From IMG/VR virus record IMGVR_UViG_3300032607_001425, positions 38,120 to 102,119 of that record: a stretch of 64,000 nucleotides of DNA. One strand, 5' to 3'. Every line of letters begins with the position of its first letter. Positions within the stretch are counted from its first letter, which is position 1. The position numbers and the translations under genes were made by a program. The notes under the pieces are model-generated. The model searched no databases and was not told the origin of the DNA. It was given only the letters and a program-made list of their open reading frames with translations. Shown piece by piece: positions 21,338-50,608 of the stretch. The DNA comes from a virus.

Positions 21338-21447
21338 ATTAAATAAAAAAAGGAGAAATTAAAAATATAGTACCTGACCGTACTAAATCTTTAAAATCTC
21401 CATATGCTCTTGTAGGTCGGTCAGTACCCTTTATTTAATATAAATAG
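21338..21447 (-). ncRNA. Endonuclease leader RNA family B, copy 1
   Basis: GGAGA...TCTCC-closed stem with apical TAGTAC/GTACTA; complementary CTGACCG/CGGTCAG; U tract before the ATG. Confidence 0.72.
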
Positions 21448-21476
21448 CAACTTTTTATAAAAACCGCTAGTTTTTA

Positions 21477-22622
21477 CTAGTGGCTGTCGCCATAATCGTG
21501 CTTCTCCGATGCAATTAAATATTCAGGGTTTATTACTTTTGCTACCTTTTTACGATCTCCAGATATGTGCTTTATGACTATTCCCTCGTGAGGAGTTTTT
21601 GTCCTTTCAATGAAGTTGTTGAATACAAAACTGTCTTGGATTTCTTGGTTCCATTTACCTGCATATAGAACTTCTACATGAGGTAATCCTAATAGCTCAT
21701 CTATTTCATATTGAGCAGAATCTGTTGGAAAGTATTCATTATCCATTTTTAAATCAAATCCTGTAAATCTAATATCCTCTAACCCATAGGTGTAGTTCTT
21801 TTGAATTCCTGCTCCATAAATTTCTCCATAAAGAATTAGTCCATCACCAACATAGTCACTTCCATAGATGTAGCATAGGTTCCAAAGCCTTGCTTTGATT
21901 TGATACTTTCCAGCAATTGTTCTCCAAACATCAGTTGAGTAGAATCCTTGAGAATCACTCCCTTTTTCTACATTATGAGATCCGTAGACATACTCGTAAT
22001 CAATCCACTCATCAGTAATTCTTAGGAATTTTTTTACTTTATCCCAAAATGATAATTTAGATTTTTTAACTATTCCGTATCGTGCGTTAGTCCCATGAAT
22101 CTTTCTAGTGATTTGAACTTCATCTTCTTGCGTAAACATTCCGTCAACGTTTTTAAGGTTTGGGAATCTGTAGTAGATGTGGAAGTTTTGATTATCTTGG
22201 TACTTAATCTTTCTACCTGAGGCAAGTTGAATTTGTTTAACTGGTGGTTCGTATTTGGTAATGTTTAGGTGAGACATACAATCTCTCCCCTCAATTACTA
22301 AATCATAGTCACCCATTGATACTTTACCTTTAAGATAGCTTATTGGAATGATTAAGCATTCAGAATAAACTCCTCTTAATTTTACAGTCCTTACTCTATT
22401 GCCTTTTCTTAGGTAAGAAGTAACTCCCATCTGTTCAGATAATTTTTCTGGTATAACTGCATCGGTAGTTGCAATAACTGCTAACCCATCTACTTGAAAT
22501 TCTCCTTTTTTAGTAATAGCATTCCATCCACCTGCAATCACAAGTTCGATGTTATCTGCTCCTTCAATGGCTCTTACTTCGTTTATTTTTGCTATAAAAC
22601 AGCAGCTGTTATTATTTTCCAT
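21477..22622 (-). CDS. RNA ligase (Rnl2/DRB0094 family)
   Basis: N-terminal OB domain (IEGADNIE...LRGVYSE), motif I KIHGTN, YGEIYG..IQ, FDL, EGIV, K.INPEYL. Confidence 0.9.
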   Translation of the reverse strand: MENNNSCCFIAKINEVRAIEGADNIELVIAGGWNAITKKGEFQVDGLAVIATTDAVIPEKLSEQMGVTSYLRKGNRVRTVKLRGVYSECLIIPISYLKGKVSMGDYDLVIEGRDCMSHLNITKYEPPVKQIQLASGRKIKYQDNQNFHIYYRFPNLKNVDGMFTQEDEVQITRKIHGTNARYGIVKKSKLSFWDKVKKFLRITDEWIDYEYVYGSHNVEKGSDSQGFYSTDVWRTIAGKYQIKARLWNLCYIYGSDYVGDGLILYGEIYGAGIQKNYTYGLEDIRFTGFDLKMDNEYFPTDSAQYEIDELLGLPHVEVLYAGKWNQEIQDSFVFNNFIERTKTPHEGIVIKHISGDRKKVAKVINPEYLIASEKHDYGDSH

Positions 22623-22866
22623 TTTTATGTTCTTGTATTAAATTTTTTATTCCTTCTTTTTTCTCATCATTGAAAACATCTTCGAGTTTAATTTCTTTTT
22701 CTGCAAAATACATAAACTCTAAACATTTGTAAACACTCATTCCACTTTTACAACAATCTTCAATATAGTCTTTATACTTTTCAAAATCCTCATCAGTGTA
22801 CTTGTAATTATCTTCTGTACGTCTGTCTTTTAGTCTTTGTAAATAATTTTCAAATGTTTCTTTCAT
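22612..22866 (-). CDS. Hypothetical protein
   Basis: Coupled ORF. Confidence 0.55.
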   Translation of the reverse strand: MKETFENYLQRLKDRRTEDNYKYTDEDFEKYKDYIEDCCKSGMSVYKCLEFMYFAEKEIKLEDVFNDEKKEGIKNLIQEHKNGK

Positions 22867-23264
22867 AACAATATTCCGAATCTTTTTTTCATAGTTTCTA
22901 ATTTATCTTGTGGTACTCCATGCTCGTTTACTCCTCCGTGTCTATTTTCTACAATTAACGAGTAGACTCTATATCCGTATTTTTCTGCTAGATCATAGTA
23001 TGGTTGCATTTCCCATTCTTGAGTGAATGTGTTTGACACTGTTATTCTTTCGTATTGTGCTTTAATTAAAGATGAAACTTCTTCTTGACACCAAGCATGT
23101 GCTTCTTTTAATTGGGAAGGATCAAACTTATAGTCTCCATTCTTATCTATAAAGTACATATCAGCTTCTCTATAATAATGTTCTTTGTAATTTGTCATTA
23201 ATGACTTTGCTAATGTTGATTTACCTGATCCAGGTAATCCTCGTAAAAGAAACAATTCCTTCAT
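22863..23264 (-). CDS. Polynucleotide kinase-like P-loop protein (AAA_33)
   Basis: LLRGLPGSGKST, EADMYF, AHAWCQ, VSNTF, HGVP. Confidence 0.85.
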   Translation of the reverse strand: MKELFLLRGLPGSGKSTLAKSLMTNYKEHYYREADMYFIDKNGDYKFDPSQLKEAHAWCQEEVSSLIKAQYERITVSNTFTQEWEMQPYYDLAEKYGYRVYSLIVENRHGGVNEHGVPQDKLETMKKRFGILL

Positions 23265-23464
23265 AACCTTATTTGTTTTTAAGTTCTTTTTCTTTTAAAG
23301 TATTCATATATTTTAATTCAATTGCTACTCTATCTATTGCAAAATAAATAAGTAAACCTACAGTTAGTATTGTAAAAATTAATAGTACCATCATAATCTT
23401 ATTTGTTTTTAAATTTATACTTAAATATACGAATAATATCTCAGTCTACCAAATTATTTTTAAT

Positions 23465-24106
23465 TTATTTTACATATTTCCAAATAAATCCTCCTGCCGT
23501 CTTATTACGACCAGTCAGACAATTAGATATACTATTCCTAGATATTCCTAATGATCTCTCAATATCTCCCAGTGAAGGCCAAACTTGTACAACCACGTTG
23601 TCAAGCGTTAGTTGTTTAACTGAAACCATTCGCTTTATTGATCGCTTTTTAATGCTCTCTGGGTTTTGCATGTGATCTGTGGAAGGTTTAAATCCAATTG
23701 CTTTTCTTGTGGCTACAATTTTTGCAGCATGCTCTTTTGTTTTGGGGACATTTTTAAATTGAATAGATACGGCTAAGGCGTGCCTCTCTTTTACCTCCTG
23801 GTACATCCTTGCTGTTACTTTATGCTTAGGTTTGCTTATATCTCCCATTGTTACAAAAAACCACAGTGCCTGTGATAATTTTAGTTCGGTTGGGAAAATC
23901 CTACATAAAAGTAAATGTGCTACAAAATGTTCTCGAGCTGTAAGTAGTACAACATTTGGATGAGTTTTCCACTAACGTTCCAAACCTTCTCCTCCCATAC
24001 ATTTTGGAATAATGTGATGAGCTTCAAAATAAAACTCTCTACTCTTAACTCTGTTTTCACTTTGAGCTCTCTCAATTAGTTGATTGTAAATTCTTTGGTA
24101 ATTCAT
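23465..24106 (-). pseudogene. HNH homing endonuclease interrupted by one in-frame TAG (23972-23974)
   Basis: MNYQRIYNQLIERA...EAHHIIPKCMGGEGLER*WKTHPNVVLLTAREHFVAH continues in frame to AGGFIWKY; paralog of 44009-44674. Confidence 0.85.
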
Positions 24107-24210
24107 AATAAAAAAAGCTATGGCTTTCGAGGTAGGAGACTCTACTTGCCTATAGCTTTAGTTGATATTTTATTTAGTATTTGTAGCTCCTACACTACAT
24201 ATATAAATAG
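24107..24210 (-). ncRNA. Endonuclease leader RNA family A, copy 3
   Basis: Same scaffold; loops GTAGGAG and CTCCTAC. Confidence 0.75.
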
Positions 24211-24237
24211 CAACTTTTTATGGAAAACACCGTTTAT

Positions 24238-24888
24238 TTACACTCTAGCCTCATGATGATCCCTAGGAAGTGATGATTTTCTAACAGGCCTATCTTTGAG
24301 AATTTTAAGTACTTCATCCATCGAAATTGGTTCCAGACCATTTCCATCACATCCTACATCCATTGCTCTTCCCTCCATAACTCTTAGGTGTGGTGGTAAG
24401 TGGACATGTCCAAACAGATGTATATTTTCATTGTTCATTCCGTCCCAACTAATGATAGGAAAATGCATGCAAACAAATGTAAAGCTCTCTGTTGTTGCTT
24501 TGTTGATTGGCCTTCTTACTTCAAGTCTTACGTATTGACTTACTGAAGAGAATAGTTTTTGTACTCCCTCTTTGTTCCTTTCGATATGGTGATCGTGATT
24601 TCCAAGTACCAGGTGAATGTTTTTACAAAGTATTCTATCTCTAAATTCTTGTATCTTTTCAAATCCTCCGAATGAAAAATCTCCTAAGTGGATTAAGATG
24701 TCATCTTCACCAACCATGCAGTTAATGTTGTTCACTAAAGTATCGTTCATATGATCAAGTGACTTAAACTCTCTTGTGAAGTTTGAAGCACCTTCCCATT
24801 TCGTAGTAGCACTACAAATGTTTGAGTGAGCGTAATGTGTGTCTGATGTGAAGAACAATTGTTGTCCTTTTTGTAATGTAATTCTCAT
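24238..24888 (-). CDS. Calcineurin-like phosphoesterase
   Basis: TSDTHY.H, HLGDF, GNHD, HFP, GHVH, DVGCDG. Confidence 0.9.
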   Translation of the reverse strand: MRITLQKGQQLFFTSDTHYAHSNICSATTKWEGASNFTREFKSLDHMNDTLVNNINCMVGEDDILIHLGDFSFGGFEKIQEFRDRILCKNIHLVLGNHDHHIERNKEGVQKLFSSVSQYVRLEVRRPINKATTESFTFVCMHFPIISWDGMNNENIHLFGHVHLPPHLRVMEGRAMDVGCDGNGLEPISMDEVLKILKDRPVRKSSLPRDHHEARV

Positions 24889-24954
24889 AACTTATTTTCT
24901 TATACTTAAATATACAAAAAAAGACTTGAATAGACAAGCCTTTTTGCAATTATT

Positions 24955-25920
24955 TTAAATAAATTTTGATATATGAAACTCAATTAATTGTTGAGCTTTA
25001 GAAACATCCTCAACCCTAAGTTGTAAATTATTATCAGCGACTTTAGATAAAGTATCTAAATCTACCAATGTTACTGTGGAGAGTTGTGTTACATCGTGAT
25101 CTACGTTAGCAGGTACTGATAGATCGAGTATTAATTTTGGGTTGTTATCGATATTGTTTTTGTTTAGTATAGGTGTTTCAGCATTTGTAGCTACTATTAC
25201 TATGTCAGATACAAATATGTTTGCTTTTAGAGTATTGTAATGTGCTTTACCAACATGAAGTTCTTTTGAAAGTAAATCACTTACCTCCTCTGTCCTATTC
25301 ATTAATGTAATTTTAGTACAGTGGAGATAGTCGATTAAATTTTTACAAGTGCTTCTTCCCATCTTGCCCATACCTACTATTAGTATATTTTTAGTACTTG
25401 CATCTGGAATATTCTTTTTTATGTATTCAATGGCTACTGATGATACTGAGACTATTCCTTTACTTAGGTTAGTATTATTTTTAACTTGTCTTGAGATGTG
25501 GATGACTTTGTTAGTTATTTTTTCTAACTTTCCTCCTAATTTTTGTGCTGTTTTAGATTTATTAATAGCACTTTTTAGTTGACCTATTATTTCATAGTCA
25601 CCAAGTATTTGTGAATCTAATCCACATGCTACTTGTGAAAGATGTCTCAAAGCATCTTCCCTACTTTTTATATAACATTGATCGATAAAGTCATCCTTTG
25701 TTCCTTCTGTCTCAGAACATAGTAGTTCAATTAAACTATCAATACTAGGTCCATACCCATATATCTCAGTCCTATTACAAGTTGATAGAATAAAGAAGTT
25801 TGATAAGTTATTTGTAAGAAGTTTTTTGTACTTACTATCTGAGATAGAATATTTACCTCTTGTTAGTACATTTGATTTTTTATAATTAATTCCGCAAACA
25901 TGAAAATTACTTAACTCCAT
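24955..25920 (-). CDS. hemA: Glutamyl-tRNA reductase (C-terminally shortened)
   Basis: LSTCNRTEIY catalytic motif, GLDSQILGDYEIIGQLK, Rossmann GMGKMG, LDLSVPANVD. Confidence 0.93.
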   Translation of the reverse strand: MELSNFHVCGINYKKSNVLTRGKYSISDSKYKKLLTNNLSNFFILSTCNRTEIYGYGPSIDSLIELLCSETEGTKDDFIDQCYIKSREDALRHLSQVACGLDSQILGDYEIIGQLKSAINKSKTAQKLGGKLEKITNKVIHISRQVKNNTNLSKGIVSVSSVAIEYIKKNIPDASTKNILIVGMGKMGRSTCKNLIDYLHCTKITLMNRTEEVSDLLSKELHVGKAHYNTLKANIFVSDIVIVATNAETPILNKNNIDNNPKLILDLSVPANVDHDVTQLSTVTLVDLDTLSKVADNNLQLRVEDVSKAQQLIEFHISKFI

Positions 25921-25938
25921 TTATGTTAATTTATAACT

Positions 25939-26583
25939 CTAGATCATAAGTTTGGGAAATAATACGTTAGTCATAAAATGTCTTGCTCGATCTTCCCCTA
26001 TCTTAGCTTTTAGCGCACTAAAAGTTCTTTCGTTTTTTGATTGATATTCACAATACTCGTTCTGCTTTATAAATATCTGTTGGAGTTGTTCTTGATCGGT
26101 TGTTTTATGTGCTTGACTATTTAGCTGGTCAAGGTATGTTTCAAATATATCAAATGCTAATTCAAATAACTTATCATGCTCTTCTGGTGTAGGTTTAACT
26201 GCTATAAATTGTTTTGAAAATATAGTAGCCCATACTGGAAGTTTTCTATCTGAATTCCATGTAGTAGTATGAAAATCTTGTTCAAATCCAATTGGAGATA
26301 GATCTAAAAATGCTCCACTTATTTGTTGACTCTTTTCAGAACATACTACATCAAATCCGAAAACTGGGGAGGCATCATTGCTATATGGGAAGCATGTTAT
26401 GTGGAGTACGAGTAAATTATCTTGAAAATACCTTTCAACATGAGCTAATCTAAAGTTTTTAGACTCGTACCTATAGTTTTCCCATCCAAACTCTTCTGTT
26501 TCCAGAAGAGCAGATTGGGGTTGATTTTCAATTAATTGTTTGAATTTTTCACTATGGTGAATAAGTTTACTGCGTAAGTCCAT
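25939..26583 (-). CDS. Ferredoxin-dependent bilin reductase (PcyA/PcyX-like)
   Basis: FRLAHVE, VLHITCFP, PVFGFDVV, LDLSP, LPVWATIFS, Q..YC..Q.KNERT, VLFP. Confidence 0.85.
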   Translation of the reverse strand: MDLRSKLIHHSEKFKQLIENQPQSALLETEEFGWENYRYESKNFRLAHVERYFQDNLLVLHITCFPYSNDASPVFGFDVVCSEKSQQISGAFLDLSPIGFEQDFHTTTWNSDRKLPVWATIFSKQFIAVKPTPEEHDKLFELAFDIFETYLDQLNSQAHKTTDQEQLQQIFIKQNEYCEYQSKNERTFSALKAKIGEDRARHFMTNVLFPKLMI

Positions 26584-27097
26584 CTTCTAATTGTGCTAGG
26601 ATTGCCATATTAAAATCTAAAGCTTTATTTGCTTCATCAGCCCATTCATCTTTTTGTACCGCTCTAACTGCACCCATTGCTTCTCTCATATCTTCAAAAT
26701 CATACATCTTTCCACTTCCTGGTACTCTTTCTTTCATGATCTGTCCTCCGAACATTATAGCTAAATAATTTAGATAAACATGTGGTAGACGTTCAATTTG
26801 GTTTAATGTGTTTAAATACGTTGTGTACTGCTCAGTTGCTGGAAGTATTGCTAGTGGTCCTTCATATGCACCCTGTATATCTGATATTTCACTAATATCT
26901 GCAAATACTGCTTCTGTACGTTGTAAAGAAGGGTGTGGTAATGGAAGTGATTCTATTGTTTGAAAAATTGGAAGTAATTGGTATAGGTACGTTAAGTACT
27001 CTTGGTTGGTAAGTTCTCCTTTAGCCATTTTTTGATTGAAAGGCATTTTTTCTGCTTGAGAATGTTTTTGTTGAATTGCTTCTTTTAATGGTAACAT
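26567..27097 (-). CDS. hemO: Heme oxygenase
   Basis: Start reassigned to MLPLKEAIQQKHSQAE (proximal His); HVYLNYLAIMFGGQ distal helix; EANKALDFN. Confidence 0.88.
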   Translation of the reverse strand: MLPLKEAIQQKHSQAEKMPFNQKMAKGELTNQEYLTYLYQLLPIFQTIESLPLPHPSLQRTEAVFADISEISDIQGAYEGPLAILPATEQYTTYLNTLNQIERLPHVYLNYLAIMFGGQIMKERVPGSGKMYDFEDMREAMGAVRAVQKDEWADEANKALDFNMAILAQLEDGLTQ

Positions 27098-27171
27098 ATT
27101 TGTGTTTTTAAAATTTATACTTATAATATACAAAAAAAGACTTGAATAAACAAGTCTTTCTGTAATTATTT

Positions 27172-27969
27172 TTAAAAAAATTTCCAAATAAATCCTCCTG
27201 CAGATTTTTTCTTCTCTAAAGCACACTGTGATATGTTACTTCCATCTACTTTTAAAGTGCTACTTGCTAATGATATTGAAGTCCATTTTTTAATAAACTC
27301 CCCCTCTAAAGAGTGTTGAAGTATTATTTTTGTATTGTAACCTCTTTCCCTTCTAGTAGCAGTCCGTTTTTGAAGGGATTCCTTAGAGTGTACTACTCCT
27401 TTTTTAGCTTTAGAGATATTACTTCTGTGTTCCTGGGTTATTGTTTTTCCTTTTTTAGCTTTTGATAGCTTGCTTCTGTGATCTTGAGTATGCTTCTTTC
27501 CTTTATTTGCTTTAGATATCTTAGTTGCATGTTCTTGTGTATGTTTTTTTCCACTATTAGCTTTAGACAATTTATCTTTAGTTTTTTGAGAGACTACTCT
27601 TCCTTTGCTAGATTTGGATATCTTCTCCTTTGTCTCATCTGAGTGTGTGTGGGGTATGCCCTCTGTACTAAAGCCTGTACTAGTTGCTTTACACTTATTA
27701 TAGAAATTGGCATTAACCCCTACATTAAACTTATTGTGTAGTTTAATTTCAAGTAGCATAGCCTCCTCTCTTGTATCAAATACGGAGACTATTTTTAATT
27801 TATAATTCTCAGGGTTATTCTTAAATAATTCTTTAAATTTTAAATTAGTAGAACTAGTAAAGTATTTTACTCCTAAATCATTCTCAGGACTGTCAGTAGA
27901 GCTTCTATACCCATAGTAGTGCTTGTTTTCTTGTATAGAGGTGACTCTGTATACGTAGTAGTATTTCAT
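27172..27969 (-). CDS. GIY-YIG endonuclease with tandem NUMOD3 repeats
   Basis: Start reassigned to MKYYYVY; YYG.R, repeated H(T/S).E...K(I/L)S.A.KG units, AGGFIWK. Confidence 0.88.
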   Translation of the reverse strand: MKYYYVYRVTSIQENKHYYGYRSSTDSPENDLGVKYFTSSTNLKFKELFKNNPENYKLKIVSVFDTREEAMLLEIKLHNKFNVGVNANFYNKCKATSTGFSTEGIPHTHSDETKEKISKSSKGRVVSQKTKDKLSKANSGKKHTQEHATKISKANKGKKHTQDHRSKLSKAKKGKTITQEHRSNISKAKKGVVHSKESLQKRTATRRERGYNTKIILQHSLEGEFIKKWTSISLASSTLKVDGSNISQCALEKKKSAGGFIWKFF

Positions 27970-28081
27970 AATAAATAAAAAAGGAGAAATTAAAATACAC
28001 CACATGCAACATGGTATTATTTTAAAATCTCCGTAATATTTTTATCGAGTAGTTGCATTACCCTTTCTTTATTATAAATAG
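27970..28081 (-). ncRNA. Endonuclease leader RNA family B, copy 2
   Basis: Same scaffold; complementary ATGCAAC/GTTGCAT. Confidence 0.72.
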
Positions 28082-28119
28082 CAACTTTTTATGGAAACAT
28101 GTACCTTTTTAGTAAAAAT

Positions 28120-28437
28120 GTTATCGGGAATAATAGTCATATAGACTAAATCAAAACCAAAATCAAAATCAAAGACCTTCTTCTTTTTAAAGACAAAGAC
28201 ACAGTCTAAGGCTCATTTTAATAGCTAGTTATCTTCCTCCATGAGGTTTAAGTAATCTATCTATACGTGAGTTCTATCTCAGTTTGTGATTTTTTAAGAA
28301 GAAGCGAGTTTACAAAGACCCGGAGGTCATTATGTCTGTAGTTGATTAGATATCAATTTATCATATATGTTTTTTAAAAACTACTCTTCCCGATACAAAG
28401 CTCTGAAGGATCAGCTTGTGCCTACCCCCTTAGCACC
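28120..28437 (-). ncRNA. Putative ~310-nt structured RNA downstream of the coiled-coil gene
   Basis: Long-range helices TATCGGGAA/TTCCCGATA, CATATA/TATATG and CTTCTTCTT/AAGAAGAAG; hexamer repeats GTCTTT/GATTTT; no ORF of 60 aa or more. Confidence 0.6.
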
Positions 28438-28440
28438 AAA

Positions 28441-29352: not shown

Positions 29353-29420
29353 AACTATGATTTTTATTATTTATTTCTTACTTAAATATACGAACAATAT
29401 TTTAGATATCCAACTTTTTT

Positions 29421-29876: not shown

Positions 29877-29881
29877 AACTT

Positions 29882-30415: not shown

Positions 30416-30430
30416 AATGGATAAAATTTT

Positions 30431-30506
30431 GTGTCCTATACAGGATTCGAACCTGTGACCTTCTCGTTATGAGCGAGCTGCTCTAGCCAACTGAGCTAAA
30501 AGGACA
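30431..30506 (-). tRNA. tRNA-Met or Ile2 (CAT)
   Basis: Cloverleaf; anticodon loop CTCATAA. Confidence 0.85.
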
Positions 30507-30512
30507 TTCTAG

Positions 30513-30582: not shown

Positions 30583-30589
30583 ATGTTAG

Positions 30590-33973: not shown

Positions 33974-34633
33974 TTACTTTATTTTTCTTCCTAATCTCCA
34001 TCCTTCCGGAATTAGATCTCCTTTGTATATTTTTTTATTTTCAACTTCATCTGTTATCCAACAAGTCCCGTATTGGGAATTATTAATTCCTTTTCCTAAA
34101 TCTCTTTCTTTTCTAGTATTTCTTATTTTTTGAAGAGTTTCAGGTTTATGTTTCTTGCCTTTCCAGGAATAGCATTCTGATATGTTGTTAAATTTCACTC
34201 CTCTTTCTTTTGCCTTTTTCTGACCTTTCCTAATTGCTTTGCAGTATTTTTCTCTAAATTCAGGATCTGTCTGTAAAAGTAGTGCTTTTGCTATATTTGC
34301 TGCTGCTCTTCCCTTTATTTTATTTTCTTCTGTGAAGCCTCCTGAACTTCCTTGTTTTAAATTTAAACAGTTTGAATTTTTTAAATCCTGTTCTGTTATT
34401 AAATTAATCTCAGCTTGAACTAATTCTTCTCTTGATTGAAATTGCTCCAGTATTTCTAAGTTAAAACTGTCTCTACCATACTTATTTAATTCGTAATACA
34501 ATCTTTTACCACTTCCCAAGTAACCGTCATCTATACGGTTAGTTGAATGCATTCCCAGGTAGTACCTGTTGTTTATAAGATTTGTAGTCCTATAGGTGAA
34601 ATGATACCTTTTATTCTCTTTGATGTTAGCCAT
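33974..34633 (-). CDS. SegB-like GIY-YIG endonuclease in the tRNA array
   Basis: FTYRTTNLINNRYYLGMHST...YLGSG...KYG; C-terminal GTCWITD...IPEGWRLGR. Confidence 0.88.
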   Translation of the reverse strand: MANIKENKRYHFTYRTTNLINNRYYLGMHSTNRIDDGYLGSGKRLYYELNKYGRDSFNLEILEQFQSREELVQAEINLITEQDLKNSNCLNLKQGSSGGFTEENKIKGRAAANIAKALLLQTDPEFREKYCKAIRKGQKKAKERGVKFNNISECYSWKGKKHKPETLQKIRNTRKERDLGKGINNSQYGTCWITDEVENKKIYKGDLIPEGWRLGRKIK

Positions 34634-41528: not shown

Positions 41529-41582
41529 ATTTAATTTTTTTAATATTGTTTTGTAATTAAGACTGTAAGAATAAATAGCATT

Positions 41583-42935: not shown

Positions 42936-42955
42936 GTAACTTGTTTTATTATAAC

Positions 42956-43990: not shown

Positions 43991-44008
43991 TCTTTAATAT
44001 AAGATTAT

Positions 44009-44674
44009 TTATGCGTATTTCCAAATAAATCCTTTGTAATTTAATACTTTTTCTGTCAGGGCTCTTGAAATTCCTGAGATATTTATCCCTAAGGTGTTTG
44101 CCGCTGATGTAGTAGATATGTGGACTTCTAATAGTTGTTCATTGAGGTCAAATCTTAAAATAGCTCTTCTTTTTTTCATCGATAGCTTTTCCTTATGCTC
44201 TTGGCTAAAAGACCTCCCTACATAGCTGTCTCTTTCTTTCCTTGTCTGTATGCCTTTTTGTACAGACTCTTTTGTTCTTTTATAATTTCCCCTATCCCTT
44301 CTCGTAGCTGTCCTCTTTTCTATAGCTATATTACTTGGTGAAATTCCTTTTCTAGCTTTATTGTTTAGTTCTTTCGCTTCTGAGATTACTCTGCTGGATG
44401 GGGTGTATCTTTGTTGGTAGCTTTTTTTTAAAGTGCACATTGCATCAAACGCTTTTGCAAGCCCTTTACTACTTGGATATGCTCTAGCCAATAGCCAATG
44501 AGCTAGAAAATGCTCCCTTGCAGTCAATAAAATTAAGTTTTCTTTTCTATTCGAACCGCCCATACACCTAGGGACTATGTGGTGTCTTTCGTAGTAGGCT
44601 CCGCCTTCTTCTTTAATCCTGTTTTGCTTTTTTGCTCGATCAATTATTTGATCATAAATTCTTTGATAATTCAT
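44009..44674 (-). CDS. HNH homing endonuclease with NUMOD C-terminus
   Basis: YYERHHIVPRCMGGSN..ENLILLTAREHFLAH. Confidence 0.9.
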   Translation of the reverse strand: MNYQRIYDQIIDRAKKQNRIKEEGGAYYERHHIVPRCMGGSNRKENLILLTAREHFLAHWLLARAYPSSKGLAKAFDAMCTLKKSYQQRYTPSSRVISEAKELNNKARKGISPSNIAIEKRTATRRDRGNYKRTKESVQKGIQTRKERDSYVGRSFSQEHKEKLSMKKRRAILRFDLNEQLLEVHISTTSAANTLGINISGISRALTEKVLNYKGFIWKYA

Positions 44675-44778
44675 AATAAAAAAAAGCTTAGGCTTTCGAG
44701 GTCGTAGTCTCTACTTGCCATAAGCTTTAGTTGATATTTTATTTAAGTATGTAGCTACGACTCTACTTATATAAATAG
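44675..44778 (-). ncRNA. Endonuclease leader RNA family A, copy 4
   Basis: Same scaffold; loops GTCGTAG and CTACGAC. Confidence 0.75.
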
Positions 44779-44797
44779 CAACTTTTTAAGTAAAAAC

Positions 44798-45874
44798 TTA
44801 GTCTAATAGCTCCATATCAGGTCTCTTTTCTTCCTCTACATCTGCTTCTACGGTAATCTGAAAGTCATCTGATCCTAGTACTTTTACCCATTCATGTTTA
44901 TACTGATCCTTATACGTATCGATTGCCTTTTTATCGTCTGCAATAAATCCGTGACTAGTCATGATAATTGCTCCTCTAGATTGAATACCATCAATATGGT
45001 TTTTTTCTATTTGAACTTTGGTTCTTTTAGCAAACTCAAATTCCTTACCTTTTGTTGTAGCTTTTATTTTACTTGTTCCAGAATTCGTAATATTTCCAAA
45101 GGTAATAATAACTGTTGAGTCATACCACATGCTTTTCCCACCCTTATTCTCAAGGCGTGGTTGTCCCATTGGATGTTCAGGTTTCGCAGTCCAAACTTTG
45201 TTTACAGCCACTAGTGTGTTTGTATACTTACTTGCTTCTTTCCTTGATAGCATAATCTTTTGATTTACATTATTTGCAAACTGTTGACTCATTGCTCCAG
45301 CATTCCATTCTGCATTATTCTTCGAAGATCTTACAGATAAGTCACATGGCACTGATCCAACTGAATCCCAGAAGAAACATAAATCGTAAGGAAGGTTTCC
45401 TTTCTTTTGTTCGTCAATTAAGTCTAAGATGTAAACTGCTACGTCTTCTATGGTGTTTAGAGTTCCTCTATCTGCATATAAGAAAAATCCTTTGTAATCA
45501 GTTATCTCTCCTGTATCCTCATCAACTACTTCTTGAACTTCAAGACCCATCATTTGAGCATGTGGCCAAGACCATTTCATCTCAGTAATAATGAATACTG
45601 GGAGGATTTGTCTTTTCTGTGCTTGAACTGCAGCTTCTAGTAGCAAAGTTGTCTTTCCTGTATCGGAATGTCCTCTTAGTAGTGTAATATGTCCCATAGG
45701 AATTCCTTTGAGAGATGTTACTTCTGAGAATGCATCTGATACTTTAATCCAATCTTGGCTCTTAAACTTTACTGAAGTATTTGAGAATCCTTTGTTTTTC
45801 TTAAAGTTGTCCAAACTAAAACCGCCTTTGATTATATCGCTAGCGGTTTTTGTTGTTGTTTTTTTGATTGCCAT
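44798..45874 (-). CDS. RecA/UvsX-like recombinase
   Basis: GIPMGHIT..GHSDTGKTT, WDSVG, KGGKSM, IEKNH. Confidence 0.88.
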   Translation of the reverse strand: MAIKKTTTKTASDIIKGGFSLDNFKKNKGFSNTSVKFKSQDWIKVSDAFSEVTSLKGIPMGHITLLRGHSDTGKTTLLLEAAVQAQKRQILPVFIITEMKWSWPHAQMMGLEVQEVVDEDTGEITDYKGFFLYADRGTLNTIEDVAVYILDLIDEQKKGNLPYDLCFFWDSVGSVPCDLSVRSSKNNAEWNAGAMSQQFANNVNQKIMLSRKEASKYTNTLVAVNKVWTAKPEHPMGQPRLENKGGKSMWYDSTVIITFGNITNSGTSKIKATTKGKEFEFAKRTKVQIEKNHIDGIQSRGAIIMTSHGFIADDKKAIDTYKDQYKHEWVKVLGSDDFQITVEADVEEEKRPDMELLD

Positions 45875-45876
45875 TC

Positions 45877-46707
45877 TTAATTGAATAAATCGTCAAATTT
45901 GTTAACTGTACTTTTGTTTCCTGCTGTTGCAGTCTCTAGGGTGAAGTCTGTTTTGTTACTTCCTAAAGCTGCTGGTAATGGTGGTTCAACTGCAGGTGCA
46001 ATCGCTTCCGTTGGAGTTGCAGGTGCTTCAGCAACTTCTTCTCCTGGATTCAAGTACTCTTGTAACTTTTTCTTAATAAATTCATAGTCGTACTGAGTTT
46101 GTACTTCTAATGCGTTTGGTTGATCCTTTAACCAAGAGTTTACTTTACTGTCATCATCTGACAATACTGTTTGCTTTGGTTTGATACGAACCGTAGTACT
46201 TGGGAACTGACCTGGTCCTGCAGCTGGTGTATTCTCTACAACCATATCCCATCCACTCATTACGTCTGTAAAATCTCCAATGTCTTCATCTTCTGCTAAA
46301 GCAAGTAACGCTTTGTAGATGTTTACACCAAATGACCAAAGACGAACTCCTTTTTCTTCTTCTCCTCTTACAACAACAGGAGCAAAGAATCTTGACTTAG
46401 GAGATAACTTTCCAGACAAAGACCAATTATCTTTATCGGATGTTTTTCTCAATTCTTTTACGAATTCTTCGATTGGATCAATTTTACCATAATTAGAAAG
46501 AGCTGTCATGGGAAACTTTGCTATATTGTAGTGCAGTTTAATCTCCGTAAAGGGGTCTGCAGCATTAAATGCCGAAGGGACAATGCGTATAGTGCTTTTG
46601 CCGTTTGCTGGCCTCCAGTAAATCTTCTCAAAATCTACCTTTTCGCGATCTTGATTACCGCTGCTGTTTAGACTTTCTAATTTTTGTTTAATCGCTTTTA
46701 AATCCAT
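45877..46707 (-). CDS. Single-stranded DNA-binding protein (gp32-like)
   Basis: YWRP..GK..IRIVP, LWSFG...Y, acidic C-terminus ending FDDLFN. Confidence 0.85.
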   Translation of the reverse strand: MDLKAIKQKLESLNSSGNQDREKVDFEKIYWRPANGKSTIRIVPSAFNAADPFTEIKLHYNIAKFPMTALSNYGKIDPIEEFVKELRKTSDKDNWSLSGKLSPKSRFFAPVVVRGEEEKGVRLWSFGVNIYKALLALAEDEDIGDFTDVMSGWDMVVENTPAAGPGQFPSTTVRIKPKQTVLSDDDSKVNSWLKDQPNALEVQTQYDYEFIKKKLQEYLNPGEEVAEAPATPTEAIAPAVEPPLPAALGSNKTDFTLETATAGNKSTVNKFDDLFN

Positions 46708-46771
46708 AGTGTAACTTTTTTTAATTTAACTTTATTTTACTTTATTATAATATACGAAACCTTTTTTAATT

Positions 46772-47542
46772 TTACAACTCTTTCTGTTCATATTTCCAAA
46801 TAAATCCTCCAGCTGATTTATATCTTCCTTTCAGACAGGATGAGATATCTCCTCTACAAATTCCTAAAGTAGTACTAGCCTCTTTTCCTGAGGTCCATTC
46901 TCTTATTAGATTTCCTGCTTTATCATACTGGTTGATAGCTTTTTTGTTCTTTTCAGCTATAGTGTAGTAGTCTGTATTGGCTACCTGTCTGGCTTTATTT
47001 TCAATTCCCTCTTTTGTTTGGTAAAAGGCTCTGAAATTCTTTGCTTGGTTTTGCACTTTTAGTAGCCCTTCATCTGTTTGATTGAATAGTATTAGATTTG
47101 CTGTTATAGCATGCCTACTTCTCACCCCTTCTTGTGTTGCTTCAAAAGCTTTCCTGCTTTCTGCTTGTTTAGTAAGCATCTCTAGACCTTCTGGTGTTTT
47201 ATTAAAGGCTATTCTAGTTGCTGATATTTTATCAAGTGTATCTTGTGAGTACTTATGCTTTAGCGTATCTGTTGGGGTTAGTTTACAGTTTAGTCCTTCC
47301 TCACCTATTACTTTGTAAAAATCCTGCCAATACCTCTCCCTTATGTTTAATTCTTCAAAAAGACACTCCTCTACTATCTCATAAGTATGTGCAGTAAAGC
47401 TATATTTTATAATAGAGTTGTAAAGTCTTGGCTGTCCTTTGCACTCTAATCTAATATATTCTGCTCTTCTTTTTTCTAATACTTTACTCTGTCCAATATA
47501 AATTTTTCCACTTGGACTTGTTATTTTATAAATCCCTATCAT
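46772..47542 (-). CDS. GIY-YIG homing endonuclease with helical repeats and NUMOD1
   Basis: GIYKITSPSGKIYIGQS; (F/Y).T.EG repeats; AGGFIWKY. Confidence 0.9.
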   Translation of the reverse strand: MIGIYKITSPSGKIYIGQSKVLEKRRAEYIRLECKGQPRLYNSIIKYSFTAHTYEIVEECLFEELNIRERYWQDFYKVIGEEGLNCKLTPTDTLKHKYSQDTLDKISATRIAFNKTPEGLEMLTKQAESRKAFEATQEGVRSRHAITANLILFNQTDEGLLKVQNQAKNFRAFYQTKEGIENKARQVANTDYYTIAEKNKKAINQYDKAGNLIREWTSGKEASTTLGICRGDISSCLKGRYKSAGGFIWKYEQKEL

Positions 47543-47654
47543 ATTAAATAAAAAAAGGAGAAATTATAAATAACTACCTGGTCCGTAGTGTCATTATAAA
47601 ATCTCCGTAATGTTTTTATTGGTAGGACCAGTACCTTCTTATTTAATATAAATA
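47543..47654 (-). ncRNA. Endonuclease leader RNA family B, copy 3
   Basis: Same scaffold; complementary CTGGTCC/GGACCAG. Confidence 0.72.
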
Positions 47655-47666
47655 GCAATTTTTTTT

Positions 47667-47945
47667 CTAAACCGCTACTTTTTTTATATGATATCCAAAT
47701 TCTGATTCATTTTGTTGTGGATTATAGTACCGAGGTCTTGTACTATACTTTCCTTCCCAATCCTGTACATCCTCTTCCCATTCATTGGCTATTACAAAAT
47801 CCTCAGCATCACTTTCACTGTCAAAAAATTGCTCGGTGTATGGTTCATCCTGTCCACTATAATCGTGAAATACTACTTGGTACTTTTCTTGTGTATTTTC
47901 AGTTAGGAAGCTCTTCTTCCATTTTGCTATATCGAATGATTCCAT
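47667..47945 (-). CDS. Hypothetical acidic protein, possible internal virion protein
   Basis: MESFDIAKWKKSFLTEN N-terminus. Confidence 0.55.
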   Translation of the reverse strand: MESFDIAKWKKSFLTENTQEKYQVVFHDYSGQDEPYTEQFFDSESDAEDFVIANEWEEDVQDWEGKYSTRPRYYNPQQNESEFGYHIKKVAV

Positions 47946-47950
47946 TTTAC

Positions 47951-48406
47951 TTACAACTCTATGATGCGAAAAAGTTTAGTGTTAATTCGTTTTAATTCAT
48001 TTCCTTTTGTTAGTAATATACAATTTTGGTAATCCATCCAGTTTATCTTATATGTTACATCTAGGACTCCTCCGTTTAGGGACTCAATCAATCTGTTAAG
48101 TGAATTAATTGTATATAAAGAATTGCTTTCTTTTTTGCGGTGGACAAGGATTGTATTTTCTAAGAAATTAGAAACGTTTCCAAATTCAATATTATAAGTC
48201 ACGATGTATTCGTCTTGACTCTTTGAATAAAGAACGAAAATTTTGTTATAAATGATCTTGTATTTAGTTTGTATTGTACTTAATAGGGTATCCAGATTTT
48301 CCTCTGAGGAGAATGTACAGAAAAGTTTATTGCTCATGTCGGCTATGTTGTAATCGTATTCGACATCGTAGTCAAATTTTGAGGTATGTATTATGCTTTG
48401 GGTCAT
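47951..48406 (-). CDS. Hypothetical phage protein
   Basis: LFCTF...HRKKESNSLYTINSLN motif. Confidence 0.7.
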   Translation of the reverse strand: MTQSIIHTSKFDYDVEYDYNIADMSNKLFCTFSSEENLDTLLSTIQTKYKIIYNKIFVLYSKSQDEYIVTYNIEFGNVSNFLENTILVHRKKESNSLYTINSLNRLIESLNGGVLDVTYKINWMDYQNCILLTKGNELKRINTKLFRIIEL

Positions 48407-48425
48407 TAATAAATAGGATTTTGTT

Positions 48426-49754
48426 TTACAAAACTAAATTGTTACTATATTTGAATTTTACTGGGTACTTTCCTCCTTGATTCATTATTTTTTCTAAAGA
48501 TTCTAGTGTTTCTTTGCCATCTGACTTATCGAAATCGAAGACAAACGCATCGTACGTATAAAGTGCTAACTTACTTTTCTTATCTTGAAGAAACATTAAC
48601 ACATCCTTTAATATAAGGATATTTCTTGACGTTTCCAAGCTCTGCATCATATAGTTCATTAACTTTTGTGGATGCATATCTGGAAGTTCTTGGGTAAACC
48701 TTTTACCTGATATTGGATCTTCTATATATCCTTGTTCTTTGAATTGCTTCCAAAGCATTGCAATGTACTTTTCTATCTTATCAAACACCTCAAGGAAAGC
48801 ATACTCTGGTGGAATCTTTCCATAAATGGCATGAAAGTTTATTTGCTTTGCTTTTGCATACTCCTCTTCAGCTATTTCATCTTTTCCAAAGTACAATCTT
48901 GCTAATTGAACGTGTGCAGATTCATCTGTCAGTTGATATCCAATTTGTTCACATAGAAGGCGAAGGTGGTAGCCGTCAAAATCTAATTCACAAAAGAAGT
49001 CGTTCTGGGGTATGATTGTTTTTCTAAACTCAGGAGCTTTAGGAATTGCTGCAAAGTTTATGGAATTAAAAGCATTTGTCGGACGAGATGTAGTATTATA
49101 TAAGTTATACGATGTGTATGCAATATTATCTTCAATATTATACGCTTCATTGTTTGGTTTAAAAAGTTGTAAAAATTGTGTATAAATTATTTTTAATCCA
49201 GCTCTCTCAATCATAAAGAAAACTGAGGTGGCTGTTTTATTATAGAAATCAAATCCATTTGGTATTGCATATTGCAATATGCGATGTACCGTATTATAAT
49301 TATCTTCACATTTCTCAAACAACTTTGATATTGGAATAATTGTATTTATGTGTTTAAATTCGTGAAAACGATTGTAATACCAATTACATGTTGAGTTTGA
49401 TCTCGCAAGTTCTAACCTATTATAGTGAGTCATGCAATATAATAGTGACAGATCTGTTACGCACGGTAATATAAAGTGGTACATTAACTGTTTCTTATCA
49501 AACGTATAAAGTGTAGTGTACTGTTTTAAAATGTCGTAGACACAGTTTTTATCTAAATTTAATCCCTCATCATGACTTATTGGAATAATATACCCTTCGT
49601 GGTGATCTAATGGTCTTAAGTAAACTGCTACTGTATGTGTAAGAAGTGGATGATAGTTATCATTTGAAGAAATAACCTCTACATACCCCCCTTTCCTACC
49701 TAAATTTTTTAGCAATTGTATTTGCTCTTGTGTTTCTATGATATAGAACGCCAT
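48426..49754 (-). CDS. Second, compact family A polymerase-like protein
   Basis: Motif A ELDFDGYHLR, motif B AKQINFHAIYG, motif C LYTYDAF. Confidence 0.8.
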   Translation of the reverse strand: MAFYIIETQEQIQLLKNLGRKGGYVEVISSNDNYHPLLTHTVAVYLRPLDHHEGYIIPISHDEGLNLDKNCVYDILKQYTTLYTFDKKQLMYHFILPCVTDLSLLYCMTHYNRLELARSNSTCNWYYNRFHEFKHINTIIPISKLFEKCEDNYNTVHRILQYAIPNGFDFYNKTATSVFFMIERAGLKIIYTQFLQLFKPNNEAYNIEDNIAYTSYNLYNTTSRPTNAFNSINFAAIPKAPEFRKTIIPQNDFFCELDFDGYHLRLLCEQIGYQLTDESAHVQLARLYFGKDEIAEEEYAKAKQINFHAIYGKIPPEYAFLEVFDKIEKYIAMLWKQFKEQGYIEDPISGKRFTQELPDMHPQKLMNYMMQSLETSRNILILKDVLMFLQDKKSKLALYTYDAFVFDFDKSDGKETLESLEKIMNQGGKYPVKFKYSNNLVL

Positions 49755-49781
49755 AACCTTTTTTCTTTAATATAGTAAACT

Positions 49782-50498
49782 TTATTTATATTTCCAAATA
49801 AATCCTCTTGAAGTTACATTTCTTTCTTTACAGCAGTTTATAATACCTGTCTCTCTTATTTTTAAAGCTTCTGCTGCTTCCCTTATAGATGACCACTCCC
49901 TAACATAGATCCCCTCTTCTGTGAACTGTAAGACCAATCTCCTACTTCTACCTGACCATACTCTATTTTTTGGTTTTTGTAACTGCAGTACCTGTTCTAC
50001 AACTCCTACCTTGTACCTCCATAGAAACCCTCCTGCTGATTTACTTTCTTTTCTACAGCAAGCAGGAATATTACCTCTCTGTATGCCCAAAGCTTCTCCT
50101 GCTTCTTTTATTGAGTTCCATTCCCCAATGAAGACTCCTTCTAGTGAGTACTGTATAATTGTTTTCCTGTGTTTTTCTACTCTCTTCCTGTCTGAGTCTG
50201 CTGATACTTTCCCTGACCTGTCCTCCGTACCTGTCAGTTTACAGTTTAATCCACTCTCTCCTAATACGTCATAAAAATCTTGCCAATGTCTCTCACGAAC
50301 GTTTAATTCCTCAATACTACATTTTTCTACAACTTCGAAGAGGTGTGCAGAGAAACCGTATTTCAGTAGTGAGTTGTATAGCTTTGTTTGCCCTTTACAT
50401 TGCAGTCTCTTATATGCCCCTAACCTCGTTGCTGTATTTACACTTTGTCCAATATAAATTCTTCCTTTAGGATTTGTTATTTTATAAATTCCTATCAT
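49782..50498 (-). CDS. GIY-YIG homing endonuclease with two NUMOD1 domains
   Basis: GIYKIT...IYIGQS; duplicated QY/F..EG...EW.SI.EA..AL...GF.W.Y. Confidence 0.9.
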   Translation of the reverse strand: MIGIYKITNPKGRIYIGQSVNTATRLGAYKRLQCKGQTKLYNSLLKYGFSAHLFEVVEKCSIEELNVRERHWQDFYDVLGESGLNCKLTGTEDRSGKVSADSDRKRVEKHRKTIIQYSLEGVFIGEWNSIKEAGEALGIQRGNIPACCRKESKSAGGFLWRYKVGVVEQVLQLQKPKNRVWSGRSRRLVLQFTEEGIYVREWSSIREAAEALKIRETGIINCCKERNVTSRGFIWKYK

Positions 50499-50608
50499 AT
50501 TAAATAAAAAAGGAGAAATTAAAACAAACCCTCTGCAACAAGGTGTTATCTTAAAATCTCCGTAATGCTTTTATAGAGTGGTTGCAGTACTCTTCTCTAA
50601 TATAAATA
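50499..50608 (-). ncRNA. Endonuclease leader RNA family B, copy 4
   Basis: Same scaffold; complementary CTGCAAC/GTTGCAG. Confidence 0.72.

Follow-up and report, generated by a model that had tools for sequence, protein, structure and literature searches.

Kissing contacts between RNA loops are well described in plasmid antisense systems, including ColE1 RNA I/RNA II, R1 CopA/CopT and the attenuation systems of pT181 and pIP501. Loop–loop contacts within a single RNA occur in the purine riboswitch (L2–L3) and in the hammerhead (stems I/II), and phi29 pRNA has a covarying inter-loop pairing. The lambda pR′-6S RNA-tR′ unit is a promoter-proximal terminator/attenuator. Among free-standing homing endonuclease genes, those for I-TevI, I-TevII, I-TevIII and segB of phage T4 and for mobE of Aeh1 have their late promoter within a hairpin, which keeps early and middle transcripts from being translated (PMC2988022).

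The window analysed here is a 64,000-nt stretch of a 102-kb viral contig. An earlier note on this DNA described a second type of structured leader at four sites (family B). All four were found at the positions given there, on the minus strand and with one common scaffold of about 105 nt: TATTTATA, a short hairpin (P2), an A-rich linker, a 50-nt hairpin (P3, GGAGA...UCUCC), a run of six to seven U residues and, 7 nt past this run, the AUG. The core GGAGATTTTA...TAATTTCTCC occurs four times in the window, the same four times in the whole contig, and 0 times in 100 shuffles. The leaders are arranged as follows.

21338..21447, minus strand: leader B1, with TATTTATA at 21439–21446, P2 at 21414–21429 (loop CUGACCG), linker at 21402–21413, P3 at 21352–21401 (apical loop CGGUCAG), and U7 plus AUUUAAU at 21338–21351
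27970..28081, minus strand: leader B2, with TATTTATA at 28073–28080, P2 at 28047–28063 (loop AUGCAAC), linker at 28033–28046, P3 at 27983–28032 (loop GUUGCAU), and U6 plus AUUUAUU at 27970–27982
47543..47654, minus strand: leader B3, with TATTTATA at 47647–47654, P2 at 47621–47635 (loop CUGGUCC), linker at 47607–47620, P3 at 47557–47606 (loop GGACCAG), and U7 plus AUUUAAU at 47543–47556
50499..50608, minus strand: leader B4, with TATTTATA at 50601–50608, P2 at 50576–50592 (loop CUGCAAC), linker at 50562–50575, P3 at 50512–50561 (loop GUUGCAG), and U6 plus AUUUAAU at 50499–50511

The 7-nt loop pairs reported previously (CTGACCG/CGGTCAG, ATGCAAC/GTTGCAT, CTGGTCC/GGACCAG and CTGCAAC/GTTGCAG) are all correct. 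A 92-aa ORF upstream of B3 ends just 12 nt before the promoter motif.

Each of the four leaders has a far better folding energy than its shuffles (z = −3.8 to −5.7), and RNAalifold recovers P2, P3 and a further helix, P1. In an alignment of 40 leader sequences (A2), the kissing helix formed by the P2 loop and the P3 apical loop is 97% paired, with both-side changes in five of its seven pairs and up to four pair types per position; none of 500 shuffles reached the observed level of covariation, and slid controls were only 40–54% paired. The P2 stem and the apical P3 stem each covary as well. Retention of loop complementarity in homologues had been named beforehand as a test, and a perfect loop–loop complement of 6–9 nt is kept in 41 of 41 distinct elements from viral contigs, which together carry at least 14 loop alleles; a 42nd element (L087) adds the pair CUGCAAU/AUUGCAG. 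The flanks of the kissing loops are non-complementary, so that the pairing is not one long alternative helix, and G–U pairs in P3, the kissing helix and P1 fit a sense-strand RNA rather than DNA or an antisense transcript. Covariation therefore provides very strong support for a kissing-loop pseudoknot built from two supported hairpins with Watson–Crick paired loops.

P1 pairs the promoter region with UUAUUUAAUAUGA, AUG included, in both the MFE and the RNAalifold folds, such that TATTTATA doubles as the 5′ arm of a helix occluding the start codon. It is 91% paired in A2, with three pairs doubly changed; compensatory changes include C–G in L025 versus U–A in its near-twin L037, A–U in B2, and C–G in L009 and L008b. 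Four sequences contain uncompensated C–A mismatches, and both arms are partly constrained, one by the promoter and the other by the AUG. Support for P1 is modest to moderate, weaker than for P2, P3 and the kissing helix. No purine-rich Shine–Dalgarno sequence is present in the 14 nt before the AUG (UUUUUUUAUUUAAU); a GGAGA lies 60 nt upstream, within the P3 stem.

P3 alone has a predicted energy of −16 to −21 kcal/mol and a GC-containing base (GGAGA/UCUCC), with U6–7 directly after it; leaders of the zinc-finger subgroup have U4–5 followed by more U. Together, P3 and the U run look like an intrinsic terminator module, and a simple terminator scanner did not flag P3 owing to its internal loops. 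No conserved alternative pairing with the 5′ strand of P3, as expected of an antiterminator, was seen in folds or alignments.

The motif TATTTATA, which is the reverse complement of the T4 TATAAATA, is invariant in 40 of 40 leaders. The earlier note had counted it as part of the leader scaffold; its distribution points instead to a general late-promoter-like motif of this phage, with 29 copies on the gene strand versus 2 on the other; many genes, among them those for the tail tube and the baseplate hub, have a copy 6–25 nt ahead of their ATG. Promoter activity at these sites is probable from the sequence. Other late genes of the phage have leaders of 0–20 nt and no terminator, and so do not point to a general late antitermination system.

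About 42 distinct family B homologues were found in IMG/VR viral contigs, carried by Flavobacterium-type freshwater phages, and cultured phages yielded no match. A search of the window with Rfam 15 returned only tRNAs at gathering score, and the four leader loci gave no match at E ≤ 1 to any family, riboswitches, ribozymes, pRNA, group I introns, Flavo-1 and HEARO included. The window also contains a second leader type, family A, previously described as unrelated in sequence and alike in topology. Both statements hold: the family B leader model (R1) does not match family A elements, and both families combine a late promoter, a small hairpin, a linker, a long hairpin with a U run (U7–8 before the AUG in family A) and 7-bp loop–loop pairing. 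Family A lacks an AUG-occluding P1, and P1 therefore cannot be the core mechanism common to both families.

Turning to the downstream genes, an endonuclease ORF begins 9–14 nt past P3 at about 46 of 48 leader loci. In the window, the genes behind the family B leaders are as follows.

20639..21337, minus strand: gene behind B1, GIY-YIG plus NUMOD1/I-HmuI-like, 232 aa
27172..27969, minus strand: gene behind B2, phrog_314, NUMOD3, divergent GIY-type N-terminus, 265 aa
46772..47542, minus strand: gene behind B3, GIY-YIG with N-terminus MIGIYKI, NUMOD1, phrog_314/5123, 256 aa
49782..50498, minus strand: gene behind B4, GIY-YIG plus NUMOD1, 238 aa

In the ORF listing, the frame of the B2 gene extends upstream to an in-frame ATG at 28005, inside P3. 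All four genes had been assigned to the GIY-YIG class, an assignment that stands for B1, B3 and B4; for B2, Pfam makes no GIY-YIG call, and the gene encodes a divergent homing endonuclease. The eight leader-bearing endonuclease genes counted previously are likewise present, out of about 12–13 endonuclease-like genes in the window rather than about 16. Leaders of both families are near-exclusive to endonuclease genes, and the homologue survey did not place them mostly before non-nuclease genes. Across the homologues, family B precedes homing endonucleases of three unrelated types, GIY-YIG(/NUMOD1), HNH-NUMOD3 and zinc-finger/EndoVII-like, and the single loop allele CTGGTCC is found with all three. 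The RNA is thus not tuned to its cognate nuclease, contrary to the earlier proposal that it pairs with the cognate GIY-YIG/NUMOD protein.

Two endonuclease genes (61028–61654 and 33974–34633) have a late promoter and no leader, which is therefore optional. The endonuclease genes that bear leaders are located within modules for replication and nucleotide metabolism (RNA ligase, SSB, DNA polymerase), and an HNH gene that has this promoter but no leader is found among tail genes. The presence of a leader may thus depend on genomic context, a contrast between early and late modules that involves very few genes.

The B4 and B3 loci show how these leaders are arranged relative to other promoters.

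49757..50673, minus strand: whole B4 cassette, missing from the syntenic site of the relative G002; comprises a spacer of about 63 nt, the late promoter, the leader, the endonuclease gene and a 3′ early-type promoter copy
50681..50718, minus strand: resident terminator hairpin and early-type promoter TTG-N20-TATATTATAA
49765..49797, minus strand: copy of an early-type promoter, TTG-N20-TATATTAAAG, 3′-terminal in the B4 cassette
46745..46777, minus strand: early-type promoter TTG-N20-TATATTATAA, 3′-terminal in the B3 cassette

Comparison with the empty site in G002 reveals joint insertion of leader and gene, downstream of an early-type promoter and ahead of the DNA polymerase ATG. The leader thus belongs to the mobile cassette, the ends of which are ambiguous by about 17 nt owing to the near-duplicate tatatta(t/a)a(a/g)aaaaaagg. 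Insertion displaced the resident early-type promoter from the DNA polymerase gene, and transcripts from this promoter are consequently predicted to run into the leader. The copy at the 3′ end overlaps the last endonuclease codons and precedes the DNA polymerase ATG (49754); judging by its sequence, it is a replacement promoter. Similarly, the early-type promoter ending the B3 cassette lies ahead of the gene for a ssDNA-binding protein (45877–46707). A group I intron holding the endonuclease ORF was considered and rejected: there is no Rfam intron match, the empty site indicates an intergenic insertion, and the gap from the endonuclease stop codon to the next ATG is just 27 nt.

We propose, with a probability of about one half, that family B is a cis-acting structured 5′ leader within free-standing homing-endonuclease cassettes that limits the timing and amount of nuclease. 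Transcription of the nuclease gene would start at the cassette's own late promoter, TATTTATA. Read-in transcripts from upstream early or middle genes would contain the promoter sequence, which would pair with the AUG region as P1 and render these RNAs translationally silent; P1 is expected in such read-through transcripts only. By analogy, this control would resemble that of T4 I-TevI in logic, with a new architecture, and would transfer that logic to a host that does not use Shine–Dalgarno sequences. In addition, P3, locked to P2 by the 7-bp kissing helix, may together with the U run act as an attenuator or insulator, with only a fraction of polymerases reaching the nuclease ORF. If so, DNA-cutting selfish genes would be kept weakly and late expressed. 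A terminator between a gene's own promoter and its ORF would be odd unless read-through is regulated. A plain GC-rich hairpin would also suffice for termination or occlusion, and the control model therefore leaves unexplained why a hypervariable 7-bp kissing contact exists in two scaffolds.

Possibly, though we consider it doubtful, the locus mainly yields a discrete small RNA, about 90–95 nt long, that runs from the late promoter to the P3/U-run terminator and acts by itself, for example as a structure-specific protein ligand or through loop–loop dimerisation in trans, with nuclease made only from rare read-through. The promoter-to-terminator unit is complete without the ORF. A solo leader lacking an endonuclease ORF persists in L051/L052, and intact leaders stand beside broken genes in L015, L016 and the family A copy at 24209. 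The loops are hypervariable on a conserved linker and stems, as are the specificity determinants of plasmid antisense RNAs, and by our estimate a 7-bp kissing helix with a 13–18-nt linker is sterically tight across a P3 of about 20 bp in coaxial geometry, which would favour pairing in trans. However, solo copies are rare (1 of about 42), the element otherwise always lies 9–14 nt from an endonuclease AUG, and this AUG is included in P1. The loop alleles within one genome all differ, yet within chance expectation (P = 0.26), and there is no known trans target.

Less probable still is an RNA processing or stability element, in which the quasi-continuous P2–kissing–P3 helices would serve as a substrate of the RNase III type or as a fold protecting the 5′ end, and the leader would set the half-life of the nuclease mRNA. 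T7 RNase III sites and 5′ stabiliser hairpins are models for such a role. This reading would fit a hairpin that is long (about 20 bp), irregular, broken by internal loops and situated where the late transcript begins, and also a geometry that is conserved although the loop sequence is free. It explains neither P1 nor why both families have a U run right behind P3, and there is no evidence of cleavage sites.

We regard as very improbable an autoregulatory operator RNA bound by its own downstream nuclease. I-TevI does repress its own expression, by way of a DNA operator located at the late promoter (PMC2988022), and the leader is near-exclusive to nuclease genes, but the unrelated binding modules behind one leader and loop allele, and the burial of the variable positions in the kissing helix, argue against it. 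Finally, a hitch-hiking repeat that has no function as RNA, or an inverted repeat or recombination module acting at the DNA level, could account for the P1 arms as a DNA inverted repeat and for leader homology that stops exactly at the ATG where the nuclease type changes, suggesting recombinational shuffling, but it is essentially refuted by covariation, since the many compensated loop alleles, covarying stems and G–U pairs demand selection on a folded sense-strand RNA and a second, unrelated scaffold converged on the same topology.

Compared with known systems, family B resembles lambda pR′-6S RNA-tR′ in having a stable hairpin and U run within about 100 nt of a late promoter, ahead of the gene to be expressed, and differs in that the other late genes of this phage have short, terminator-free leaders. 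Like the riboswitch, hammerhead and pRNA examples, it carries two hairpins on a conserved single strand whose loop–loop pairing is kept by covariation, and its read-through RNA is predicted to fold as a P1/P2/P3 three-way junction. In contrast to those junction RNAs, its two hairpins differ greatly in length (4–5 bp for P2, about 20 bp for P3), the loops meet in a complete Watson–Crick helix of 7 bp, and there is no evident conserved junction resembling a ligand pocket. With plasmid antisense RNAs it shares fully pairing 7-nt loops and a conserved scaffold with a variable, specificity-determining loop, and its terminator-like module recalls pT181-type systems, where kissing is linked to a terminator immediately ahead of a start codon. 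Unlike in these systems, no preemptor or alternative helix was found in leader B, there is no antisense transcript, and both loops lie on one strand of one RNA, so that complementarity must be kept by true co-evolution.

The differences from T4-type control are that leader B has no Shine–Dalgarno sequence and the AUG itself is paired, fitting a Bacteroidota-type host; that about 90 nt of extra structure (P2, linker, P3, kissing helix and U run) lie between the P1 arms; and that family A does without an occluding helix altogether. The two share a late-promoter-like motif, 8 nt long, AT-rich and lacking a −35 element, that lies immediately before a free-standing nuclease gene. In both, that gene is sited among early or middle genes, and its end holds promoters for the phage gene that follows. 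As in T4, the promoter sequence is also the 5′ arm of the helix that buries the translation start, and only transcripts begun at this promoter should therefore be translatable.

All four family B leaders are on the minus strand, which also encodes almost every gene of the window:

21338-21447, minus: leader B1
27970-28081, minus: leader B2
47543-47654, minus: leader B3
50499-50608, minus: leader B4

Each reads, from 5′ to 3′, (C)TATTTATA, 8–11 nt resembling TTAAATAAG, a short hairpin (P2), a linker, a 50-nt hairpin (P3), U6–7, AUUUAAU and the AUG. In these four copies P2 spans 15–17 nt, with a stem of 4–5 bp and a loop of 7–9 nt, and the A-rich linker of 12–14 nt has the consensus AUAAAAACAUUAC; P3 comprises a GGAGA/UCUCC base, a UU/UU internal loop, an A-U-rich mid-stem, a small internal loop and an apical stem of 4–5 bp closed by a loop of 6–7 nt. 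The exact core GGAGATTTTA...TAATTTCTCC occurs four times in the window, the same four copies being all those in the 102-kb contig, and never in 100 dinucleotide-preserving shuffles; each leader also folds far more stably than its own shuffles (z = −3.8 to −5.7). The four sites and the shared scaffold proposed in the earlier note are thus borne out. B2 has a loop allele that introduces an ATG into P3 (28003-28005, minus), in frame with the endonuclease ORF and 12 codons upstream, and ORF calling therefore begins this gene at 28005; aligned with the other copies, it starts at 27969. A search for leader peptides gave only a chance six-codon ORF in B1. Shine-Dalgarno/anti-Shine-Dalgarno mimicry by GGAGA/UCUCC was considered and dropped, family A (the other kissing-loop scaffold in the window) having nothing similar.

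Scanning IMG/VR for the exact motif gave 53 loci; some 48 are true homologues, of which 40–41 are distinct. When the criteria were relaxed in a second scan of viral contigs, one further true member (L087) emerged alongside 16 new loci that were chance matches, and the family B search model found no extra diverged copies in five whole phage records. The loops, described earlier as complementary and co-varying, prove so throughout: in every distinct element the P2 loop carries a perfect 6–9-nt complement to the P3 apical loop, with at least 14 loop alleles (including CUGGUCC, CUGCAAC, CUGCGAC, CUCGUCC, CUAGUCC, CUGGUAC, CUGGAAC, CUCGUAC, CUUGCCC, AUGGUAC, CUGACCG and CUGCAAU). On an alignment of 40 sequences this kissing helix is 97% paired, with changes on both sides in five of seven pairs and all four Watson–Crick types at one position; its four central positions are hypervariable, the linker is conserved, and covariation extends to the stem of P2 and the apical stem of P3. 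None of 500 shuffles reached the observed covariation, and sliding the loop partners, as a control, lowered pairing to 40–54%. The loop flanks have no mutual complementarity, so the 7-bp pairing coexists with both hairpins, and the contact is a kissing-loop pseudoknot rather than a single long helix formed as an alternative. G-U pairs in P3, in the kissing helix and in the promoter–AUG helix P1 point to a structure formed by the sense-strand RNA. Copies within one genome all differ in loop allele, though not significantly so (P = 0.26), and no correspondence between loop allele and nuclease type was found.

Nearly all of the ~48 family B loci carry a homing-endonuclease ORF 9–14 nt after P3, so that the association with endonucleases stands when downstream genes are surveyed across loci. 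These are of the following types:

GIY-YIG with NUMOD1: majority type
phrog_314 with NUMOD3: B2 type
HNH with NUMOD3: phrog_655
zinc-finger, EndoVII/HNH-like: phrog_1035

GIY-YIG genes had been placed behind all four window leaders; GIY-YIG/NUMOD1 is the majority type, but that of B2 is phrog_314/NUMOD3. The loop allele CUGGUCC is present with all three unrelated nuclease types (GIY-YIG, HNH-NUMOD3 and zinc-finger/EndoVII-like) and leader homology stops at the ATG where the type changes, which argues that the leader is a portable module and not the partner of one particular protein.

The exceptions to an intact ORF are decayed copies. At L015:3631-3770 the leader is kept and the nuclease gene has a stop at codon 3 (intact in its relative L053); at L016:5241-5382 the leader is kept, the ATG is gone and the AUUUAAUAUG stretch is replaced by a T run. 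At L051:2367-2508 (minus; identical to L052) an intact solo leader with loops CUGCGAC/GUCGCAG stands before a 19-codon stub, behind which come an early-type promoter and an SSB-like gene; this site is orthologous to that of B3 and has apparently lost its endonuclease ORF by deletion. Similarly, the family A leader at 24209 (24094-24211, minus) is intact before a broken HNH-type ORF (MNYQRIYNQ...), of which a 127-aa, NUMOD-region-like C-terminal fragment (23465-23848) is left. Eight endonuclease genes with leaders (four A, four B) were confirmed in the window, out of a total of about 12–13 endonuclease-like genes, not about 16. At least two endonuclease genes, 61028-61654 (among tail genes) and 33974-34633, have the late motif without a leader.

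The family B search model does not detect family A, so the two are unrelated in sequence, yet the element order is the same, as the earlier note had it: late promoter, small hairpin, A-rich linker, long hairpin, U7–8 and AUUAUG. Of 24 distinct family A copies, 23 have a 7-nt complement between the two loops (a contig end cuts the remaining one), and there are at least 12 loop alleles. The family lacks an AUG-occluding P1, its promoter sequence joining an extended 5′ hairpin instead; what the scaffolds have in common is therefore a hairpin-plus-U-run module 11–14 nt before the AUG, with the kissing contact made at the apex of its hairpin. In family B, the folding energy of P3 by itself is −16 to −21 kcal/mol, and U6–7 comes directly after it (U4–5 within a U-rich stretch in the diverged zinc-finger subgroup); P3 escaped a simple terminator scanner owing to the scanner's loop limit of 3–8 nt. 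The genes behind family A widen the range of nuclease types served by kissing-loop leaders:

L096:5504-6442: DUF723/treble-clef protein
L092:3170-3739: NUMOD4 and HNH_3 protein
L037:1453-2088: GIY-like protein (METGIVYKW...)

Turning to the promoter, TATTTATA occurs 29 times on the gene strand of the contig versus twice on the other, usually with an ATG 6–25 nt downstream; the genes so preceded include those for the tail tube and the baseplate hub, and window positions of the motif include 62238, 60980, 59959 and 57060. It is thus not private to the leaders but common to many other gene starts, and no -35-like partner was found for it. The T4 late promoter motif is TATAAATA, the reverse complement of TATTTATA, which we treat as the predicted late-promoter class of this phage. 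An extended form, AAAAAGTTGC-TATTTATA, is present in seven of eight cassette promoters (window positions 2001, 14477, 24209, 44777 and the four B sites; all except B4) and absent from most ordinary late promoters of the contig. The motif lies only 6–20 nt from the ATG in many late genes, implying near-leaderless late mRNAs, against which the ~105-nt endonuclease leaders stand out.

In minimum free energy folds and RNAalifold, the promoter region (UUAUAUUAAAUAA) pairs with UUAUUUAAUAUGA, start codon included, to give P1. This helix is 91% paired and shows compensatory changes (C-G in L025 against U-A in its near-twin L037; A-U in B2; C-G in L009 and L008b), but four sequences carry uncompensated C-A mismatches, and its support is accordingly moderate. 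If, in the manner of T4 late promoters, transcription began a few nucleotides beyond TATTTATA, late transcripts would lack the 5′ arm of P1 and leave the AUG free; in transcripts entering from upstream, P1 would form and bury it.

Such entry is expected at the B4 cassette (49757-50673, minus). A relative syntenic with the window lacks this cassette; there the DNA polymerase ATG comes straight after an early-type promoter (TTG-N20-TATATTATAA) and its accompanying terminator hairpin. Between that promoter and that ATG the window holds an insert of ~917 bp. It consists of a 63-nt spacer, a late promoter with the leader and endonuclease gene behind it, and another early-type promoter, the TTG of which falls within the last endonuclease codons. 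Promoter-like sequences of this second class (TTG-N19-21-TATATTA(T/A)A) often come right after a terminator hairpin. Those concerned here are:

50681-50718, minus: resident early-type promoter, displaced by the B4 insert
49765-49797, minus: early-type promoter, 3′ end of the B4 cassette
46745-46777, minus: early-type promoter, B3, before the SSB gene
43992-44030, minus: early-type promoter, family A cassette at 44001
27121-27165, minus: early-type promoter, B2, after the stop codon

B3 and the family A cassette at 44001 repeat the promoter placement of the B4 3′ end. The promoters at cassette 3′ ends would restart transcription of the downstream phage gene, the same arrangement as in T4 seg/mob genes. 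Since the displaced resident promoter lies upstream of the insert, its transcripts must enter the leader, which would give a concrete role both to P1 and to the terminator-like P3.

We propose, with a probability of roughly 0.5, that the leader is a cis-acting device limiting endonuclease expression, combining late-promoter-dependent relief of AUG occlusion with a kissing-reinforced attenuator or insulator. Occlusion by P1 would operate in family B, and the kissing-reinforced hairpin and U-run would attenuate or insulate in both families; the analysis establishes the fold and how well it is kept, the link with endonuclease genes and the leader's place in the cassette, while start site, termination, occlusion and the contribution of the kissing contact are all predicted. 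Endonuclease genes with leaders lie in replication and nucleotide-metabolism modules and the leaderless HNH gene in the late tail module, a small sample that fits an expression-limiting role. The model leaves unexplained why both scaffolds keep a 7-bp loop-loop helix with a hypervariable centre and a conserved linker, because a plain hairpin would terminate or occlude equally. Intramolecular kissing is geometrically tight by our own estimate (a 13–18-nt linker against ~20 bp of P3), and the contact might affect how the base of P3 closes, or might even form in trans.

Among the alternatives, a discrete ~95-nt RNA as the main product is an unlikely reading, though the best placed of them. A processing or stability element is a somewhat weaker candidate. 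Equally doubtful is that the two convergent families form a new nuclease-associated RNA class whose 7-nt loops are selected specificity determinants, a programmable RNA-RNA "address" and more than a structural brace on an attenuator; the loops could then keep co-resident or co-infecting endonuclease cassettes from cross-talk, or, where mobile nucleases compete, act in trans, either through dimerisation or in the form of a separate late RNA of ~95 nt. Protein-specific autoregulation is disfavoured for a leader shared among nuclease types, and a functionless repeat, given such covariation, more strongly still.

Rfam searches, at gathering score and at E ≤ 1, matched no family to the leaders (tRNAs only), and a group I intron, known ribozyme, riboswitch or HEARO element was rejected on that basis; blastn of the leaders against 50,697 cultured-phage records gave no match. 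The contig is from a freshwater metagenomic phage with a DNA polymerase region ~80% identical to that of Flavobacterium "immuto" myophages, the nearest isolates, in which the cassettes are absent. In contigs from four freshwater DNA runs, the repeated leaders were marked by nothing more than assembly breaks and peaks of depth, and no usable presence/absence joints were obtained. No RNA run was listed among the sequencing runs carrying the phage. No kissing-loop leader of homing endonuclease genes was found in the literature searched; the main text of a 2023 survey (PMC10690425), which catalogues over 10,000 candidates for structured viral RNAs, is silent on endonuclease leaders. A covarying kissing-loop leader in two convergent scaffolds, serving many nuclease types in a non-Shine-Dalgarno host lineage, was thus not found in Rfam or the searchable literature.

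The leaders constitute an undescribed RNA family with unusually clean covariation, and two scaffolds of the same topology go with five or more endonuclease types in phages whose Bacteroidota-type host does not use Shine-Dalgarno initiation. Free-standing homing endonucleases are abundant selfish genes of phages, and, to our knowledge, nearly all that has been established on how carriers tolerate them comes from T4-like coliphages. If the proposed role is correct, the leaders, as compact natural parts in which 7-nt loop pairs can be swapped, would also serve studies of co-transcriptional loop-loop RNA folding. Control of phage homing endonuclease genes by RNA structure from a late promoter is already known from T4, where a translation-blocking fold is relieved in late-promoter transcripts of I-TevI/II/III, segB and mobE (PMC2988022). 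P1 of family B would follow the same logic, although the leaders here involve no Shine-Dalgarno sequence; the T4 principle, in which an inhibitory RNA fold takes in the late promoter, would then be found again in a phage group far removed from T4, extended by a kissing-loop/terminator module.
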